This document shows positions 1,004 to 58,324 of a stretch of DNA of 64,000 nt, piece after piece. The notes beneath the pieces were generated by a model. It saw only the letters and a list, made by a program, of their open reading frames with translations, was not told the origin of the DNA and ran no database searches. Position 1 is the first letter of the stretch. Each line of letters starts with the position of its first letter. The stretch comes from Eledone cirrhosa (Eukaryota), in contig OZ024742.1 of assembly GCA_964016885.1 (NCBI GenBank), positions 305,226,001 to 305,290,000 of the forward strand, written 5' to 3'. A program made the translations under genes and the position numbers.

Positions 1004-4000
1004 GTTTACATACAGGTATATGGAAATAAAACTATTAATACAATAACAAATAACAATTGAAATCCCCAATAGGGAGGGGGCTACACAGGCATTGTACACA
1101 CCCCGAAAAAATGTACAACCCTCATCTCCATGTGCACCAAGAGTGAGTACTCCCTTCCTCTCTTCCTCTTTTTCCTCAACCTACAGGCTTATATAGAGAG
1201 AAGGCCCAACCACTCGGGCCATCTTTGCCACATTCACCTAACTTTTATAAAATTTGCTGGGGTACAGCACCTCTCTCTCCATCCTGATTCTTCTTCCAAA
1301 ATGATATTTGAAAAAACGAATCAGTTGCTCGCCGGAGAGAAAGGTGTCTGACCTCAGCTCTTTTAACCTCCTCCACCATATAACCTCTTTCACCATAGCC
1401 ATAACACATAGGAAAACCGCCTCTCCCTCGTTTTTGAAGGAGGGTGGCGGTTTGATCATGACAATGGACTCGGTGCTCAACTGGGTTGGTCCCACCCGCC
1501 ACAATAGTCGTTCTACTTAGCCCCACAGTAACGCCCGGGCAGTGTACAAATGCGTGTGCGACGGTTTCCTCGTCGCGCACGCATCTCGGACAGATCTTTT
1601 TCGAAGGGTCCCTACCTGCGCGCCCGTGTCTGTAGAGCTTCTCTCGAACTGGTAGAGCTCCTCAGTAGCACTGCCAGGCCAGGGACTTTTGGAAGTTGTC
1701 CATTGGTCCCGGGCGGAAGGTCCTACCGAACAGACTGGCCAGTTCGTCCTCCTCTACGCCTAGAGTTTCCCCGAGCGTGTCGTCGCACTTGCTGCGGACC
1801 AACCCTCTAAAGAATGTCGAAGTGATGTCTCCACTGATTGCCGGGTCCGTTTGCCAGAGGACTGTGAGCGCCTGAGTACATTCGATGTGCCAGTCGCCCA
1901 TTTTCCTCGGTCTTTTCTTTACCCAGGACTGCAGCTCGGTCAGCGAGACGTGTCGTGGGAAGGCTCGCTTCACGAATGGTGCCCACACCGGTTGTCTGGT
2001 GACGAATACGTGGAGATGACGCAGCCTGAGCGCGTGTTTGCGCATCGTCAGCCACGGCATCCCCAGCCCTCTGTTTGAAGGGTGTTGGCAGCAGATGGAT
2101 CTTCTCACCAAAGGAACCCGTTTCTTCCAAAGGAATTGGAAGAGCGCGCGCCCCATTTTGGTGAGCGTTTTGGCTGGACAAGGCACAACGGTCAAGCGGT
2201 AGTAGATGACGGACGCTATAAAAGTGTTCGCCACCTCCGCTCGACCTTTCAAGGATAGTTTGCACTCGGCCCACTTCTGGGTGAGCGCAAACACCTTGGC
2301 CGTCACCTCGTTCCAAATCTTCTCCACCTGGAGGTCAGGACCAAACCAGACCCCGAGCAGCTTTACCGGTCCTTCCGTCCAGCGTCCGACGACGTCATCG
2401 GAAGGCATCTGTTTGCCTCTCCACGTTCCGAGTTGCAAACCGACGGATTTGTCCCGGTTCAGCTTCGCTCCTGTGAACCTTTCGTATTCCTCCAGTAAGG
2501 TGCCGATCTCCCCGATTTGCGAGGTGCTCGACACCATTACTGTCACGTCGTCGGCGTAGGACGACGCCGCTTTTCGCAGTCCAGGCTCAAAAAGGATGCC
2601 CTGCAATAACTCCAATTTCCGCAGTAGTGGCTCGAGAGTCAGTACGTACAGAAGGGAGGAGAGAGGGCATCCCTGTCGGATGGATCGCGTGATATGGAAC
2701 GGCTCCGAGAGGTAGCCGTTCACCTTGACCCTTGAGCAGATGTTTCTGTTGTGCATTGCAGCAATCCAGCCCCTGAACATGGGACCGAAGTCTGCCGCCT
2801 CGAGCACCGCATCCAGGTAACGATGGTCAACCCTATCGAAAGCCTTAGACTGATCCAAGTTGATCAGGGCCCCACTGAAGCCGGGTTTACACTCTACCCT
2901 CTCTATGATGTATCGCATGAGGTGGAGGTTGTCGTGTATAGACCTAGTCGGGATTGCGCATGTCTGCGCTTCTCCCACCAGGTTTCCGACGACAAGCGCC
3001 AGCCTCTTTGTCAACACCTTGGCCAAAACCTGTAACTCTGTGTTGAGCAGAGTTATGGGAAGGAAGTTGCCTATGTCATCCCCCTTGTTCTCGTCCTTCC
3101 TGACTAACGTGACTACGCCCTTGGTCACAGAACTGGGAATTCTCCCGTTCTGCTGCCAGTTGCAGTAGACCGCTTCCAGGAGACCGGAGAACAAGTCCGG
3201 CATTGCTACGCAAAATTCGTAGGGTAGACGGTCGAGACCTGGAGATTTGTGTTTGCCGCATTGGCTCAGCGCGTCCCCTATCTCAGCGGCCGAAATCGGC
3301 CTTTCGCAGAACTTCGCCTCCCTGTCCGAGAGTCGCGGTAAGCCGTGGATGTATGAACCGAAATCCATAGCTCCTCCCGGCGCTCTGCCCTGCCCGAGCA
3401 GTTGAGTAAAGTGCTGCTGAAAGGCCGCGCACATTTGCTTCGGCTCACGTATCACGCGCCCGTCTTGGTCCTTCAAAGAACGAATCGTGGACTTGTTGCC
3501 ACTTTTCGCCTCCGTCACTCGGGCCCAGCTAACAGCTTTGGCTCCCTCGTTTCCCAGAGCACGTACTTTGCTTTTGACAACGCAGCCTTCATGCTTTGCG
3601 TCGAAGAACTGGTCCAAGGCCGTTCTCGTCGCTAGCACGCTGGCTACGTTGCCACTCCTAAGTGCCTCTTCTACTTTATCTACCAGTTCCGGCCGACAGA
3701 GAGATGCGTAGATCTCAAAGTCATCGAAGATGGGGGCCAGCTGTCGCTCGCTGTGGATCCTGGACTCGCAAATGGCTACTACATCCATACTGTGCGACCT
3801 GAGGTCGTTTAAGAGTTTTCCCTGTTTCCCGGGCATGCCTAGGCCGCGTACATTCACATATCCAACTCTTATATTGGCCATGTTGGTGCTGAAAAGTTAA
3901 AAGAAGAGGAAAAGAAATCATTCACCTCTTCGTCTCCTGGGGACCAGGCTGCACAATTTCCATGGGGGTGTTGGAGGGGTTGTTTGGTGGGGTGGTGGTC

Positions 4001-8557: not shown

Positions 8558-8807
8558 AAGACTAGTAGTAGTAGTAGTAGCAACAGCAATAGTAGTAGCA
8601 TCAGTGCATATATTTTATTTATTTATCAGCTTTTTATTTACTGTTTGATGTTAATTTTCATTTGTTTTTACTTGTTATGCTCTTGTTTTATTTTCATTGT
8701 TAAATTTACAATCTAAACTATAATAAAGAAAGGAGTGCTGGACTGCATCCAGAATATATTTTTTTTACCCCGTTTGTAAAATGAGTTGGATTACTTTGAA
8801 TAAATAA

Positions 8808-8976
8808 CTGTTTCTACGTTAGGCACAAGGCCAGCAATTACCCAGTGCATTACTGGTACTTTATTTTATCGACCCCGTAAGGATGAAAGGCAAAGTTAAC
8901 CTCGGCGGGATTTGAACTCAGAATGGGAAGGGCCGTAACTCTATACGTCAAAGCATGGCGTCCGACCCTCTCCCAA
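8808..8976 (-). mobile_element. SINE family 1 with 16 bp TSD
   Basis: Reverse complement of the family consensus; TSD tactttgaataaataa at 8792-8807 and 8977-8992. Confidence 0.9.
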
Positions 8977-9696
8977 TACTTTGAATAAATAATGAATGAA
9001 TATTACATAATTCATCTACTAAATTTCGTGGCTGTTGATTAAATATATTTTATAGCTTCTTTAAAATTGTCAAATGTCAACACTTCCGGTTAGCGGCCGT
9101 TATATTATAACACTTATAATCGCATATATTTCCGTCGCTAATTTTCTCCTAATGCAGTTTATATATAATATCTCGTCTTTTTTAAAATGTATCATGGATT
9201 ACTGATTACAGAAGACTGTAACACAGTCTTCGTTCAATTTCTGTGTATATTGTCAATTACGATTTTATTTACATGCACATATATTTGTGCATAATATCAA
9301 TATACACACTACACATGCTAGCAGAAAACCACCCTTCAGGTATTCTTAATTCTTTAACTTTCCTGAATTTCACCTATTTTCAACTAAATGTTCCAAACAC
9401 AAATATGATAAACATATATTGTTACAAAATATTTGTTATTGCTGTTATTTTGCCACAGTTTAACACCAATCGAACAGACCCTTCATCTAATTCATTCTAG
9501 CCATGATCATATCGTTTTAATTATAGAAGGATGGTATCTAGGTATATACATATTATCAAATGTGCTCTTTACTGTTTTTAAATTAACCTGTAGGTTGTGG
9601 GAAATAAAGCTGCTATCCAGGGGTGGTCGATTGCATAGAAGCTTCTTTATTGCTTATAATGTAAGAGGAGGTGTTTATTATCTGTAGCGAATCAAG

Positions 9697-9920
9697 GGCG
9701 GTGGATTAGCAGTATTGGTAGAAAGTCAGACATCATGCTTTGCAGCATAGAGTTACGGCCCTTTATGGTCTGAGTTCAAATCCCGCCGAGGTTAACTTTG
9801 CCTTTCATCTTTACAGACTCGATGAAATAAAGCACCAGTAATGTACTAGAGTCAATTTAATCAACTTTCCCCTCCCCTTCAAATTACTGGCCTTGTGCCT
9901 AAAGTAGAAATCATTATTTC
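9697..9920 (+). mobile_element. SINE family 1, full length, 12 bp TSD
   Basis: ggcggtggattagcagtattgg...gagttcaaatcccgccgagg...; TSD tagcgaatcaag at 9685-9696 and 9921-9932. Confidence 0.9.
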
Positions 9921-12061: not shown

Positions 12062-12438
12062 AATTGTTTCTACTTTAGACACAAGGCCAGCAATTACCCA
12101 GTGCATTACTGGTACTTTATTTTATCGACTCCGTAAGGATGAAAGGCAAAGTCAACGTCGGCGGGATTTGAACTCAGATCGTAAAGGGACGTAACTATGC
12201 TGGAAAGCATGGCGTCCGACCCTCTACCGATACTGCCAATCCACCTGGTTTCAGATTTAGGATCAAGGCCAACAATTTTTTGGGAGGAGAAAGTCGACTA
12301 AATCGACTCCAGTCTGCTACTGGTACTTTATTTTATCGACCCTGTAAAGATGAAAGACAAAACTAAACTCGGCGGAATTTGAACTCAGAACATAATGGGT
12401 CATAATTCTATGCTGCAAAGCATGTTGTCCAACGTTCG
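12062..12438 (-). mobile_element. Two tandem SINE family 1 copies (12062-12245, about 12255-12438)
   Basis: Each has ctggtactttattttatcgac...ggcgggatttgaactcaga or a close variant. Confidence 0.85.
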
Positions 12439-23578: not shown

Positions 23579-23644
<66 letters not shown>

Positions 23645-23735
23645 CGAAAGATTAATAATATTCATTGATTACGCAATGAATATAGTTTTACAATAGATTA
23701 AAAGCACTCTACAAAGAAGTTTTCTGGAGTTAGTA

Positions 23736-24582
23736 ATATTATTCAAAATATTAATAGATGAATACGTTCACATAATCAAAATATATGTTTTATTATATAT
23801 ATGTCGGAGGTAGTGTGCTGCTTTTTCAGTACGCCCTCATCAGATAAAATATATGAATTGATGTATGACACCTCAACGGTCTTGATGGTTCAATTCCAGT
23901 ATTGGCAGTGATTTATTACAACAAATCTCAATATTTATATACACAAATAATAACATGATAAACTTAAATATGATGAAGAAGAGGATGTGGAGCGAGATGT
24001 AGGTAAAAGGAGGGGGTGAGTATGAGGAAATGTAAGAAGAAATGAAGAGAGAGAGATAGAAGAGAAGAGAGATGAAGAGAGAAAAAATAAGATAATATAG
24101 AAGAAGAGGAGAGAGAGAGAAGAGGGAAGACGTAACTGCAAAAAGGAATCTTTCTTTCATTCTTTCCTTTTTGCGGTTACGTCTTCCCTCTTCTCTCTCT
24201 CTCTCCTCTTCTTCTATATTATCTTATTTTTTCTCTCTTCATCTCTCTTCTCTTCTATCTCTCTCTCTCTCTTCATTTCTTCTTACATTTCCTCATACTC
24301 ACCCCCTCCTTTTACCTACATCTCGCTCCACATCCTCTTCTTCATCATATTTAAGTTTATCATGTTATTATTTGTGTATATAAATATTGAGATTTGTTGT
24401 AATAAATCACTGCCAATACTGGAATTAAACCATCAAGACCGTTGAGGTGTCATACATCAATTCATATATTTTATCTGATGAGGGCGTACTGAAAAAGCAG
24501 CACACTACCTCCGACATATATATAATAAAACATATATTTTGATTATGTGAACGTATTCATCTATTAATATTTTGAATAATAT
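23736..24582. repeat. Inverted repeat, ~415 bp arms, 15 nt loop; Penelope pLTR-derived
   Basis: Arms 23736-24148 and 24164-24582; CTGATGA-gggcgtact-GAAA at 24475-24494; homologous to the 3' end of the 43-45 kb element. Confidence 0.95.
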
Positions 24583-27774: not shown

Positions 27775-28244
27775 GGGAGATGGCAGTATCAGTAGAGCGT
27801 CAGACAACATACTTTACGGCATAGAGGTTTACACATCTGAGTTCAAATCCTACCGAGGTTGGCTTTGTCTTTCATCTTTACAGGGTCGTAAAATAAAGTA
27901 CCATTAATACACTGGGGTCGATTTAATTGACTACCACCTCCCCAAAAATTGTTGGCCTTGTGCTTATATAAGAAACCAGTATTTCTTCTTTCCTTAATCC
28001 CTTTCTTTTATTATTCTTGCTACCGTTAGGACGGTGGATTGGCAGAATCGTTAGAGCGTCGGGCAACATGCTTTGCAGCATTGAGTTACGGCCCTTTACG
28101 ATCTGAGTTCAAATCCCGCCGAGGTTAACTTTGCCTTTCATCTTACGGGGTTGATAAAATAAAGTACCAATCACGTACTGGGGTGGATTTAATCGACTTT
28201 CCCCTCCCCCAAAATGACTGGCCTTGTGCGATATAAAAAAAAAC
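27775..28244 (+). mobile_element. Two SINE family 1 copies (27775-27984; 28027-28244 with 17 bp TSD)
   Basis: Family motifs; TSD attattcttkctaccgt at 28010-28026 and 28245-28261. Confidence 0.87.
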
Positions 28245-42985: not shown

Positions 42986-43036
<51 letters not shown>

Positions 43037-43152
43037 TCACTCACACACACACACACACACACGCGCGCGCGCGCATGTATATATTTTTATTATGATTTTA
43101 ATGAATCAATCTTAGGTTTTTGGTGACGACATTATATATATATATACATATT

Positions 43153-43210
<58 letters not shown>

Positions 43211-43344
43211 GACGTGTGTATATATATATATATAACCAAAGATTAGTATCGTTCGTTGAATACTCAATGAATACAATTTTACAATAGATTAGACGCACTC
43301 AACAGAGGTTTTCCTAGAGTAAAAACTAACATAATAATAGCGAA

Positions 43345-43975
43345 TTAAATAGACTCTCTTATTCAACAACTATGAATATTGCTCAAAATATAGCAAAAAT
43401 AAATAGTAAAAATCTTAATTTGAACCAACCTTTAATTAGCAATAATAACAATAATAATAACAATATATTAGTTAATGGGAATAACAATAATAATAGTTTA
43501 AACATGAATAATAGTAGAACACCTTTAAATAATAATGTGAATAGTTTAAAGTCTGTAAATAACATTGAGAAGAAATGTAATTGTAGAAAGAAGTCTGAAT
43601 GTCCTTAACAAAATAATTGCCTTGACAGGAATCTAGTATATAAATGTACCATTAAGACAAATAATAATATATGTAACTACATTGGTGCCACTTCATCTAA
43701 ATTTAAGGAACGTTGGTTTAATCATAGACAATCTTTCAGTAAACCAGATAAGAAATGTTCAACTTCACTTTCACAATTAATATGGTCTTTAAAGGACAAT
43801 AATATTAAATATTCCATCTCTTGGACCAAATTAAAGATGGCTACCCCTATCGAAACTCAACTATTTCGCAAAATTGCAATCTTTGTAACCTTGAGACTCT
43901 ACAGATAATTACAAATTAAGACAATTTAATCAACAAAAAAAAAATGAATTATTTAGTAGTTGTCACCATAAAATT
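43345..43975 (+). pseudogene. Naiad/Penelope GIY-YIG endonuclease remnant
   Basis: LSYSTTMNIAQNIAKIN...KCNCRKKSECP*QNNCLDRNLVYKC...YIGATSSKFKERWFNHRQSF...STSLSQLIWSLK...ISW, then after frameshifts CNLCNLE and ELFSSCHH. TAA at 43606-43608 replaces the expected Leu. Confidence 0.85.
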
Positions 43976-44177
43976 GGTAAAAGTTTCCAGGCAATGTACA
44001 AGTTTTCGAAAAATTATTGACAATTAATAATTTAATATATATATAAGTTTTTGCCTTATCGTAGTAATAATTTATTAATATTTATATGTTTAGAATAATC
44101 TCATTGTCTCGTTATCCTATGTTTTGATTAGGACAGTTCAATATGTAATTAGACATCATTTATGTTATATACAATAG

Positions 44178-44369
44178 GGCGGTGGATTGGCAGTATCGGT
44201 AGAGGGTCGGACGCCATGCTTTGCAGCAAAGAGTTACTTCCCTTTACGGACTGAGTTCAAATCCCGCCGAGGTTAACTTTGCCTTTCATCCTTACGGGGT
44301 CGATAAAATAAAGTACCAGTAATACACTGGGATAATTGCTGGCCTTGTGCCAAAGAGTAGAAACAATTT
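44178..44369 (+). mobile_element. SINE family 1 nested in the Penelope element
   Basis: Near-consensus copy; TSD tatatacaatag at 44166-44177 and 44374-44385. Confidence 0.9.
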
Positions 44370-45462
44370 ATGATATATACAATAGATGATTTACGGTTTT
44401 CGAAATATCGCGGAACGTGAGAGTAGAGATGTTATAAATGTTTGTATATGGTGAATGAGTTATCTTCCTTTTGTTTACATTGTCCGTAAAAATTTCTTTT
44501 CTTTTGACTAGCTTGAAATATGTAGATTAATAATATATAGACTATCATTAAAAGGAAACTATATATCAAAATAAGTAAATACAGAAGTAAATATAACCTA
44601 TCATTAATGTAACAACTTTTGAGAGTAAACGTAACTGCAGTTTAATCCTAGGAATTAAATGAAAATTAAAGAATAGTAAGATTTTATGAAGAGAATATCA
44701 TAATTAAATTAAATAATTTGGGTAATAACTGATCTAAATATATTATATGTATTGATGGTGATATATGCATGGTATTAGATTTTAATACATATTTAATAAT
44801 TATTTAAATACGCTTTAAAGATTAATTCTTTTAAAGTTGTAACAAAATCTATACTGATTAATTTTGGTTTAATATATAAGTATAATTAGCTAAAGCATAA
44901 TCAAATACAAAAGATACTCAATTGATTATGTAAATTGATTGGCTGTCCTATTTGATCTAGCATTTGAAAACAACGGTTTTTTTCTCTATCCCCCTCTATC
45001 TGATGTTCCCTTATTTTTTTATTTATTTTCTTTACCCCCCTCTGTTCCCTTTATGTTCCCCACACCTTCCCTCTTTTGTCGTTATTCCTCTTTTCTTTTT
45101 TATATATTTATTTACTCATTCATCCATTTAATTTTTATTTATTTATCTATTTATGTATGTATTTATTTATTATTTTTTCTTGCCTTTCCTCTTCTTTACA
45201 CCCTCTCTCATATCTCTAATTTGCTCTACGTCCTTTTTTTCTTTAAGTTTATCGTATTATTTGTGGTATATAAACATTGAGATTTGATGAAATAAATTAC
45301 TGCCAATACTGGAATTGAACAATCAAGATCGTAGCGGTATATCAAATCATATATTTTGTCTGATGAAGACGTACTGAAAAAACAACACTACCTCTGAAAT
45401 ATATATAATAAAGTATATATTCTGATTATGAGAATACTTTTCATTTGTTAATATTTTGAATA

Positions 45463-45516
<54 letters not shown>

Positions 45517-54330: not shown

Positions 54331-54566
54331 TGTGAGTGTGTGTGTAAATCACCATATGATTGTTTTTGTGAAACAAGGAGCCAACAGTCGAACCTCTTCA
54401 TTTTCACTGGACCTGCTACAAATAGCAGCTAAGACACACGATACTATGTATAAATAGTTTGTCGCATTGAAATTTCGCTAGAGTTGATTTATTTACACCG
54501 GCAGCACATCAAAGAAGCTGTCATCAAAAGTATTAAAGATATCAGACTCTCATATATATTGACTAT

Positions 54567-54928
54567 GGATTGGCAGTATCGGTAAAGGGTTAGACACCAT
54601 GCTTTGCAGCATAGAGTTACGGCCCTTTATGATCTGAGTTCAAATCCCACCGAGGTTAACTTTGCCTTTCATCCTTACGGAGTCGATAAAATAAAGTACT
54701 AGTATTACACTGGGGTCAATTTAATTGACTTTCCCCTCCCCCAAAATTTCTGGTCTTGTGCCTATATAAGAAACCATTATTTAGTCAATCTTCTGATTTC
54801 AAATCCCGCCGAGGTTAGTTTTGCCTTTCGACCTTACGGGATCGATAAAATAGAATACCGGTACGCAGTGGGGTTGACTTAATCGACATTCCCCTCCTCC
54901 AAAATGATTGGTTTTGTGCCTAAACCAA
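54567..54928 (+). mobile_element. Two tandem SINE family 1 copies (second 5'-truncated)
   Basis: Family motifs at 54567-54781 and 54798-54928. Confidence 0.85.
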
Positions 54929-55750: not shown

Positions 55751-55990
55751 TATATATATATATATATATTCCATCTTTCTTGCTCAAAATTTGATTTTAA
55801 TTTTAAATCTTTAATTTTTAGTTTTTAACTCCTTTTAATTCTTTTTAGTTTCTATTTCAATACTCAACATTTGATAAGATGAATTTTAATAATACATCGA
55901 AACCGGTAATACTTTATATACATTATAAAACATAAAAAAAAAAAATTGTCCCTCTCATTTTTTCAATAATGTTATCTTTTCATTAATTGT

Positions 55991-56181
55991 GGACTGGCAG
56001 TATCGGTAGATGGTCGGACGCCATGCTTTGCAGCAAAGACTTACGACTTACGGCTCTTTATGGTTTGAGTTCAAATCACGCTGAGGTTAACTTTGCCTTT
56101 CATCCTTACGGGGTCGATAAAATAAAGTACCAGTAATGCACTGGGTAATTGCTGGCCTTGTGCCAAAAGTAGAAACAATTA
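55991..56181 (+). mobile_element. SINE family 1
   Basis: ggactggcagtatcggtag...gagttcaaatc...cctttcatccttacggggtcgataaaataaagtacc. Confidence 0.88.
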
Positions 56182-56327
56182 ATGTCACTTTGACGAATAA
56201 AAGAAAGAATAAAAAAACAAAACAGTCCCTTTAAATATATTTTCCGTGCTATTTCCAACATCACCTTTTCTCTATATCCACTGTTTTGTATAGAACCTTA
56301 CTTCCCTTTTCTAATATATATATATAC

Positions 56328-57803: not shown

Positions 57804-58035
57804 TGTTCGTGTACTCTTCACCGGCTTGACCTCTTTTCATCCCCAATGTATTCTTTCCCATCAAAACATAAATCTGCATTCTTCTACCCCTAAATTAAAT
57901 TTCTACTACTACTATTCTATCAACTTGATCTCTTACTACTTTTCTATTGGTCAATTCAAAACCTGTTCCCAAACAGACCTATTATATTAAATCTTTGCTG
58001 TTTTTTTTCAATAAACAGATCTCATTATTTCTGAA

Positions 58036-58138
58036 ATCCCGCCGAGGTTGACTTTGCCTTTCATCCTTATGGGGTCGATAAAATAAAGTACCAGTCATGC
58101 ATTGGGTAATTGCTGGCCTTGTGCCTAGAGTAGAAACA
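58036..58138 (+). mobile_element. 5'-truncated SINE family 1 inserted in one arm of the Penelope inverted repeat
   Basis: TSD attatttctgaa at 58024-58035 and 58139-58150; absent from the opposite arm (around 56655). Confidence 0.9.
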
Positions 58139-58324
58139 ATTATTTCTGAAGACAGCATATAAATGATGTGAAGGTATATATTTCCTCTGTTAGTTTGTAA
58201 TATTTTTACATAGATCTATATGATATACATACCAACACACATATATATCCTAGAAACGATCGTAAAATGAAGAATGTTTTAATATAAGGAACTTGTTCTT
58301 TGTTTTTATTCATTGTTTTTATTA

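Follow-up and report, generated by a model that had tools for sequence, protein, structure and literature searches.

A probable two-armed insertion of a Penelope-like retroelement in the Eledone cirrhosa genome, and the two fixed end points of its family

A 64,000-nt stretch of the Eledone cirrhosa genome (assembly GCA_964016885.1, contig OZ024742.1, positions 305,226,001 to 305,290,000 of the forward strand; hereafter the window) holds, between two (TA)n microsatellites, a nuclease-coding element with a short inverted piece at its left end, and near 24 kb a palindrome built of related sequence; the locus thus raises the question of what kind of element this is and how its inverted piece arose. 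An earlier note, made from the sequence alone, had described a Naiad-type element with its 3′-most ~90 nt inverted at its 5′ end in a twin-priming-like manner, and had tied it to the palindrome. Our analysis indicates that window 43235–45464 is very probably a dead, decayed two-armed insertion, within (TA)n, of a ~3.8 kb Penelope-like element (PLE) encoding a reverse transcriptase (RT) followed by a C-terminal GIY-YIG nuclease, the inverted left arm likely being the product of reverse transcription primed from the second target strand as well.

The 3.0 Gb genome was searched with the nuclease region, which gave 2680 first-look candidates (such numbers, here and below, are not copy numbers), of which 40 were scored and 16 fetched; the main locus sample comprised the window and 28 genomic loci (L001–L028). 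Nearly all of the 40 scored candidates begin at window position 43350, and the 140 nt before this position are conserved among 14 of the 16 fetched copies, unlike in the window. Homology among copies upstream of 43350 extends for 1.6–2 kb, with 5′ truncation points that vary by copy, and its translation reads, in order, RRLRWRAF, KSDKTNNLYG, KFIQMDIASYY, MGSSDSAQ, GGLYRDDILF, FLDVTLNL, SNHPKS, IIWYAPP, and IFNRHTVKLSYSTT. This RT-like frame runs stop-free into the nuclease (MNIAQ...CNCRKKSEC...YIGATS), with junction-spanning open stretches of 256–307 aa in L001, L014, L015, and L016, and the apparent start codon in the window is therefore an internal methionine. A 5′ probe covering the start of the open reading frame (ORF) gave 352 first-look candidates versus 2680 for the nuclease region, a drop expected from graded 5′ truncation. 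Judged from these translations, the window copy is 5′-truncated, which is why its nuclease looks N-terminal, and the family nuclease is C-terminal; RT and GIY-YIG nuclease are predicted to share one ORF, as in PLEs. No whole open ORF was found among the 28 copies examined, every one being broken somewhere. The family unit, ~3.8 kb long with its long 3′ tail and an Asn-rich insert included, runs from the 5′ start through the RT, the Asn-rich insert, a CxCX5C linker, and the GIY-YIG nuclease to a ~1.45 kb 3′ tail (T) and a 95-nt segment, E, to which partial tandems add the next 5′ start. At L002 560–956, a different high-copy repeat (1775 first-look candidates, ~90–95% identity) adjoins the PLE 5′ end.

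These observations bear directly on the Naiad-type identity, under which the GIY-YIG nuclease would be N-terminal and 43233–45464 would be a whole or internally deleted element with its 3′-most 90 nt inverted at the 5′ end. The window by itself invites this reading, as the ATG of its nuclease ORF stands 22 nt past the start of family homology with no RT after it, and the sections of PMC8557442 used here describe Naiads, too, as targeting (TA)n and forming tandem and inverted structures. However, the upstream sequence conserved in 14 of the 16 copies encodes an RT in frame with the nuclease, the 713–726 aa homologs described below have the RT before the endonuclease (EN), the family motif is DKT where Naiads have DKA, its GIY-YIG core lacks a Cys pair, and candidates drop from 2680 at the nuclease to 352 at the start of the ORF, as expected under 5′ truncation. 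A Naiad identity is thus extremely improbable and the name does not survive; a false lead is thereby removed, the element being neither a Naiad nor an unusual nuclease-only element but, by its motifs and domain order, a PLE with a putative C-terminal nuclease.

The same domain order was found in homologs. A word-indexed protein search at near length returned no match; an exhaustive phmmer search with the 157-aa nuclease part then succeeded, with 4228 proteins at E ≤ 1e-3 and 1221 at E ≤ 1e-10, the majority of them short fragments and one a record from the cephalopod Argonauta hians. In P0076, P0111, and P0114 (713–726 aa) the nuclease match is C-terminal and the RT comes first, marked by the ordered motifs MRWR/K (as MRWRA or MRWKV), DKT, F.QFD..FYPSI, GLYRDDG, FLDV.LDL, SNHP, and FNR.T.K.S. 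The RT segment of L002 matched P0111 residues 92–351 (BLASTP, 37%, E 6e-57), and colinear with it the junction segment of L014 matched residues 435–672 (BLASTP, E 3e-38). The Asn-rich low-complexity insert, ~45 aa long, separates the RT thumb region from the nuclease linker (window 43435–43560, and in the same place in L001–L016) and is absent from the 713-aa P0111, where a gap stands opposite it. Atlas look-alikes of a full-length homolog came from Cnidaria, Mollusca, and Arthropoda, which is a lead only.

Within a 52-sequence alignment of the nuclease, C10, C12, P19, Y31, Y45, K54, C109, C112, E115, N128, C137, and H139 are invariant and C18, C24, G47, R56, and H60 nearly so, and the GIY-YIG catalytic set of Y, Y, R, H, E, and N is present as Y31, Y45, R56, H60, E115, and N128 (with G47). 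An AlphaFold2 model built on this alignment (mean predicted local distance difference test score 92.7) has the order beta-beta-alpha-alpha-beta-alpha, and its top Foldseek matches in the PDB were T4 EndoII (probability 0.98, E 0.011) and I-TevI (probability 0.77, E 0.13), with Hpy188I (probability 0.28) and the UvrC N-terminal domain (probability 0.18) lower down amid unrelated low-probability rows; all four are GIY-YIG enzymes. Sequence-based PDB searches, whether from a single sequence or from a profile, returned no meaningful match. Weak Pfam matches to GIY-YIG occurred in 9 of the 52 aligned homologs, the sole family matched by more than two; RVT_1 was weakly matched in P0076 (E 3e-4), and P0088 matched both GIY-YIG (2e-3) and RVT_1 (0.019).

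In 9 of 12 near-full-length loci, segment E, 95 nt from attaaaaactccagg to aatctttggt, is found in direct orientation, with a partial 3′ tail upstream of it and the 5′ start of the body downstream (...ttttgaataat, then E, then catatttagctccc...), and is therefore a link between units in a partial tandem, or pseudo-long terminal repeat (pLTR), rather than a terminal inverted repeat. In the window and the 28 loci, 41 tail ends were read, of which 20 meet (TA)n-like sequence after gaataat (the short end point, S; one of these is 6 nt short and one diverged) and 21 run into E, whereas 16 of 25 E ends meet (TA)n after ...ctttggt (the long end point, L) and the other nine run into the body start of the next unit. 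Insertions thus end at S or at L, 95 nt apart, a pattern far beyond chance, and the shared end points that the earlier note had seen in two insertions prove to be fixed points of the whole sample, with junctions that are not random. E is the “tail” of PLEs, an optional extension that, in the relevant sections of PMC8557442, often occurs at one end of an insertion only; those sections also describe the inverted 5′-truncated copy and (TA)n targets. Both the pLTR and the inverted 5′-truncated copy that characterize PLEs were found here, with tandems at the 9 of 12 loci and 15 inverted arms in the window and 28 loci.

E, inverted on the left in some copies and on the right in others, might alternatively be the terminal inverted repeat of a DNA transposon carrying a GIY-YIG nuclease; however, no copy has E at both ends, E is direct inside partial tandems, and the 5′-truncation gradient and the RT ORF also argue against a transposon, which we regard as having almost no chance of being correct. 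The folding of E was also looked at: a hairpin (cgttga-gtaa-tcaacg) whose changes between copies seemed compensatory was rejected as a case of covariation, both changes falling in CpG sites and many copies having a mismatch, and alifold of the pLTR together with E predicted no convincingly conserved structure at the end points.

With the unit and its end points in hand, the window insertion can be read from left to right. The left target flank is a (TA)n microsatellite (43131–43234, direct reading), interrupted near 43208–43218. It is followed by an inverted arm (43235–43320, minus strand) that consists solely of E (unit ~3737–3824; 87.5% identity to the E of L018) and whose outer end is L, ...ctttggt adjoining (TA)n. 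A 29-nt junction stretch of uncertain origin (43321–43349) comes next, its alignments to the body sequence found ahead of 43350 in other copies being weak, gapped, and not decisive; a possible microhomology, TTCCnTAGnGT, exists here between inverted E and body. The direct arm (43350–45464, plus strand) is a 5′-truncated copy (unit ~1654–3732), ~100 bp short at 44847 relative to other copies, whose 2.1 kb body terminates at S (...ttaatattttgaataat, then (TA)n again), and the right flank is a (TA)n microsatellite (45465–45514, direct reading). The earlier note was thus right that an inverted piece is present, although its limits are 43235–43320, with body homology from 43350 and the stretch between uncertain; it is not, however, the 3′-most ~90 nt of this copy, whose own 3′ end lacks the 86-nt piece. 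To the left of the insertion, the window is a compound microsatellite (43000–43232) passing from (CA)n through (CG)n to (TA)n, and (TA)n/(CA)n compound tracts also host several other insertions of the family.

Inside the direct arm, the C-terminal remnant of the ORF (43372–43916, plus strand) comprises the Asn-rich insert, the CxCX5C linker, and the GIY-YIG nuclease, the RT part being absent. It reads as an Asn-rich stretch, CNCRKKSECP, a stop, NLVYKCTIKT...YIGATSSKFKERWFNHRQSF, a frameshift, and CNLCNLE; relative to the open copy L001, a TAA at 43606 and the loss of 1 nt near 43844 disrupt the remnant. Downstream, the arm was invaded by a tRNA-derived-looking short interspersed nuclear element (SINE) of 189 nt (44178–44366, plus strand), absent from other copies and flanked by a ~19-bp duplication (44159–44177 and 44367–44385).

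The palindrome near 24 kb proved to be a second insertion of the same family. Its left (TA)n flank (23581–23643, direct reading) is followed by E (23644–23731, minus strand), identified by E search and junction reading, at the outer end, L, of the long inverted arm; by the inverted arm proper, antisense to the family 3′ tail (23738–24148, minus strand; self-BLAST and unit mapping); by a central spacer of ~15 nt (24149–24163, direct reading); and by a direct arm ending at S (24164–24580, plus strand; junction reading and arm alignment). Self-BLAST of the window matched 45172–45464 to 24275–24580 on the plus strand (77.5%) and to 24043–23738 on the minus strand (79%), and 43168–43313 to 23581–23724 on the plus strand (83%, TA run included). 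With the TA run excluded, 23644–23731 and 43235–43320 share 70 matches with 15 mismatches and 3 gap columns (82%), and a 95-nt E query from an unrelated genomic copy matched both window sites (79.8 and 87.5%). The end point is exact to the base, with ...ttaatattttgaataat (closing in ...ttttgaataat) giving way to TA-rich sequence at both 24580 and 45464, whereas at 23738, on the minus strand, ...ttaatattttgaataat runs on into attactaactccag..., the start of E. Hence the earlier note's central observations, that the two insertions end at the same point, that the long arm continues into sequence homologous to the other end of the element, and that palindrome and GIY-YIG retroelement are thereby tied, are borne out: one family is involved, with both end points in common. 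An 11-mer, acgtaactgca, common to the palindrome center and to 44631 of the element, was dropped as its orientation is wrong.

The palindrome arms are 98.8% identical to each other (411/416 aligned bases), as opposed to 87% (tail) and 82% (E) identity with the other window copy, which indicates that they arose in one event; a single event of a somewhat different subfamily would fit. For arm mapping, all loci were placed on one natural unit, and in the window and 28 loci this gave 15 head-to-head pairs, in each of which an antisense arm is followed by a sense arm with both 3′ ends outward. All 12 pairs with both outer ends readable combine one S with one L: the antisense arm is L and the sense arm S in L001, L007, L013, L014, L020, L027a, and both window insertions, and the reverse holds in L004, L009b, L022, and L028, with L017, L025, and L027c not scorable. 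By our own arithmetic, twelve discordant pairs out of twelve would have a probability of at most 0.5^12 if ends were chosen independently. A second sample was anchored on E, for which 1819 first-look candidates were found and 38 further loci fetched (L029–L066); it yielded 28 head-to-head pairs by script, of which 20 had both ends classed, 13 as S/L and seven as L/S, with no L/L. This sample is unable to show S/S pairs; the first sample could, and showed none.

Arms could in principle also come to lie head to head if two copies had inserted independently, and oppositely oriented, at a single (TA)n hot spot, or if an inverted duplication had followed later, and (TA)n tracts are indeed reused: at L027 6634–6644, two copies lie tail to tail with only (TA)4 between them, one ending at S and the other at L. 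Yet the arms of the 28 E-anchored pairs overlap or lie ≤36 nt apart, no TA run separates the arms in the 26 centers examined, the palindrome arms are far more alike than copies are to each other, and S/L pairing in 32 of 32 would be unexpected, all of which makes such an origin very unlikely.

In the E-anchored sample, 37 of 38 L arms are under 350 nt, and nine (L030, L038, L043, L045, L049, L055, L057, L062, and L066) are tail-only, stopping within ~30 nt of S; tail-only arms occur outside this sample in L007, L014, L022, and the window. Ten or 11 L arms stop at unit 3554–3574, where the copied sequence begins with the near-palindrome ACTGCCAATACTGG; the single-armed copies L050, L051, and L063 begin at this boundary as well, so that it acts like a fixed 5′ end of the pLTR and might mark a transcript start, a processing site, or an RT stop. 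Rotifer Penelope elements have been reported to carry palindromes at that end of their pLTRs (PMC3846280). In L001 (1127–1291) and L020 (2890–2999), the same internal junction occurs despite different flanks, inverted E plus 68 nt of tail being joined to a full-length 5′ start via ATATTT, which can be read as a 6-nt microhomology; either the same microhomology was used more than once or an existing arrangement was copied. Most E-bearing places in L029–L066 (e.g., L040 4791–5096 and L047 4657–5095) are palindromic insertions of ~300–450 bp that contain only the last ~170 nt plus E, many of them centered on the near-palindrome CCAATACTGG; they form an abundant, pLTR-only, two-armed class that lacks a hammerhead.

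Such palindromes could also come from snap-back self-priming, proposed for rotifer Penelope elements, in which a single complementary DNA (cDNA), folded back onto its own strand or onto an antisense template, goes on to copy itself. Arm break points that coincide (≤10 nt apart) in 10 of the 28 E-anchored pairs, and likewise in the 24 kb palindrome, L009b, and L027c, are what snap-back would leave, as are the many centers on CCAATACTGG, and palindromes at inverted junctions are reported in the same portions of PMC3846280. However, the other 18 of the 28 pairs are asymmetric, the window being extreme (86 nt vs. 2.1 kb); snap-back predicts E at both ends or a duplicated flank, and no L/L pair was seen among the 32 scored; and centers at unit ~3560 are equally explained by two cDNAs reaching the one fixed 5′ end seen in L050, L051, and L063. 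Pure snap-back therefore explains the symmetric minority of pairs, but neither the asymmetric 18 of 28 nor the missing L/L class, and as a general account it is improbable.

Priming from both target strands remains the best reading of the two-armed copies. The anatomy and counts come from the copies themselves, and for the priming mechanism we infer from in vitro work on Anolis Poseidon, a member of another PLE clade. By analogy, the element protein would nick both strands of an AT-rich (TA)n target, cDNA synthesis would start from each 3′-OH at a fixed position within the RNA, one strand using S and the other L (an addition of our own), and the two antisense cDNAs would be joined at their 3′ ends, in many cases through microhomology of a few bases. 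For 43235–45464, this would imply an L-primed cDNA of ~86 nt that ended at or close to S, against an S-primed cDNA of 2.1 kb; in the 24 kb palindrome, both would have stopped at nearly the same point; and in tail-only arms the L-primed cDNA may have met the S-primed complex. It is possible, though we hold it as a tentative proposal with the odds against it, that the strict S/L pairing means that the PLE complex primes the two target strands at different fixed internal sites of one RNA region, one per strand, in which case the tail would be the footprint of this asymmetry and tail-only arms would arise where the downstream-primed cDNA runs into the upstream-primed one. If true, one-site-per-strand priming would add an integration rule unseen in the in vitro work on PLEs.

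Several points weigh against the interpretation as a two-armed PLE insertion, or against the precision of the counts behind it. The sampled loci are the best-scoring BLAST places and hence non-random, BLAST ends are uncertain by a few bases, and target-site duplications (TSDs) are unreadable inside (TA)n. Eight of the 28 E-anchored pairs were left unclassed by the script, their hits being split by deletions or insertions; by eye, five of these eight also combine one S with one L. No Foldseek match reaches E ≤ 0.001, all values being weak (≥0.01), the Pfam matches of the homologs lie below curated cut-offs, and the family's own translations gave no Pfam match to RT or GIY-YIG. The tail is 95 nt long here versus 30–40 bp in the literature (cf. 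PMC11167929). Finally, hammerhead ribozymes are reported for canonical and Hydra-clade PLEs, but Rfam detected none at gathering score in the window and none at E ≤ 10 in L004:1–5400 and L018:2780–7020.

Two further features were noted in the copies. At window 45359–45382 and 24476–24499, the 3′ tail carries a CTGATGA and a GAAA motif with 9 nt between them, a pair conserved from copy to copy; it resembles a hammerhead core, leaves by eye no room for a canonical helix II, and is not called by Rfam. The SINE-like repeat of ~190 nt has at least eight copies in the window (44178–44366, 12062–12245, 55989–56184, 8806–8980, 54566–54714, 28027–28182, 9695–9842, and 58034–58141) and is frequent in the fetched loci, often within PLE copies. 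It carries a tRNA-like B-box region, gagttcaaatcccgcc; its head is no recognizable tRNA, a tRNA scan of the window with ARAGORN having given none.

The window palindromes are thus explained as ordinary products of Penelope-like integration. With thousands of candidate copies, sharp end points, and an unusually long tail, the family should be useful for work on mechanism, as its one-tail-per-insertion rule and break-point hot spots are easily counted, and such counts bear on how PLEs, the least understood class of retrotransposons, build tandem and inverted structures.

Among known systems, the twin priming of L1 elements is the one the earlier note had invoked, and there the two segments derive from distinct but neighboring parts of one RNA. 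The likeness lies in a second priming on the other target strand and in an inverted segment joined by microhomology; the difference is that both arms of the present family are the same 3′ end, begun at two fixed sites. A second, oppositely primed arm is accordingly the part of that comparison worth keeping, as the best reading of the inverted piece, whereas twin priming in the L1 sense does not fit.

Among PLEs, the motifs fit the published Hydra clade, and the clade call rests on them. The sections of PMC8557442 used here give that clade a C-terminal nuclease, no CCHH, a CxCX5C linker, DKT for DKG, RWK, CxxC/CxH around E and N, (TA)n insertion, and aquatic invertebrate hosts, together with a short unit (<3 kb) and a canonical hammerhead ribozyme. 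The family appears to share the single ORF with RT and then a C-terminal GIY-YIG (an order put together from copies and homologs), the lack of CCHH, as the tyrosines of GIY and YIG enclose no conserved Cys pair, the CxCX5C linker (C10, C12, and C18; CNCRKKSEC), the CxxC/CxH (C109-x2-C112 before E115 and C137-x-H139 after N128), DKT (KSDKTNNLYG in L001 and L002), insertion in flanks that are mostly (TA)n, and an aquatic invertebrate host. At the N-terminal RW(K/R) motif it has RWR (RRLRWRAF, L001 and L002), not RWK, and it differs in its ~3.8 kb unit and in its lack of an Rfam-detectable hammerhead ribozyme. Naiad PLEs, according to the same sections, have the nuclease N-terminal to the RT, with a CxC linker joining the two, together with CCHH and DKA, none of which holds here; the likenesses described there are (TA)n targeting, tandem and inverted structures, no canonical hammerhead ribozyme, and high copy number in invertebrates.

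In vitro, the protein of the Anolis Poseidon PLE cleaves and extends both target strands, and the interval separating two internal start sites of the RT constitutes the tail (PMC11167929). The present family likewise has two alternative fixed ends, an optional intervening stretch on some copies, AT-rich targets, and products consistent with extension of both strands. Its end points, however, lie upstream of the ORF start rather than 111–118 nt inside the ORF, no AC-rich stem-loop was found at its start sites, and it pairs one S with one L end where the in vitro work saw no strand difference. A further structural parallel is the Penelope of Adineta vaga, which, in the portions of PMC3846280 used here, has an inverted pLTR beside direct pLTRs, a tail carried by one inverted pLTR, palindromes both at inverted junctions and at the 5′ end of the pLTR, microhomology junctions, and Asn-rich inserts between RT and EN, all as found here. 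It belongs to a different clade (Penelope/Poseidon type with CCHH) and has a 31-bp tail and readable TSDs, which here are hidden in (TA)n. The structure in the window is, in sum, the known PLE pattern of a tail and an inverted arm, in a new, abundant, and decayed family.

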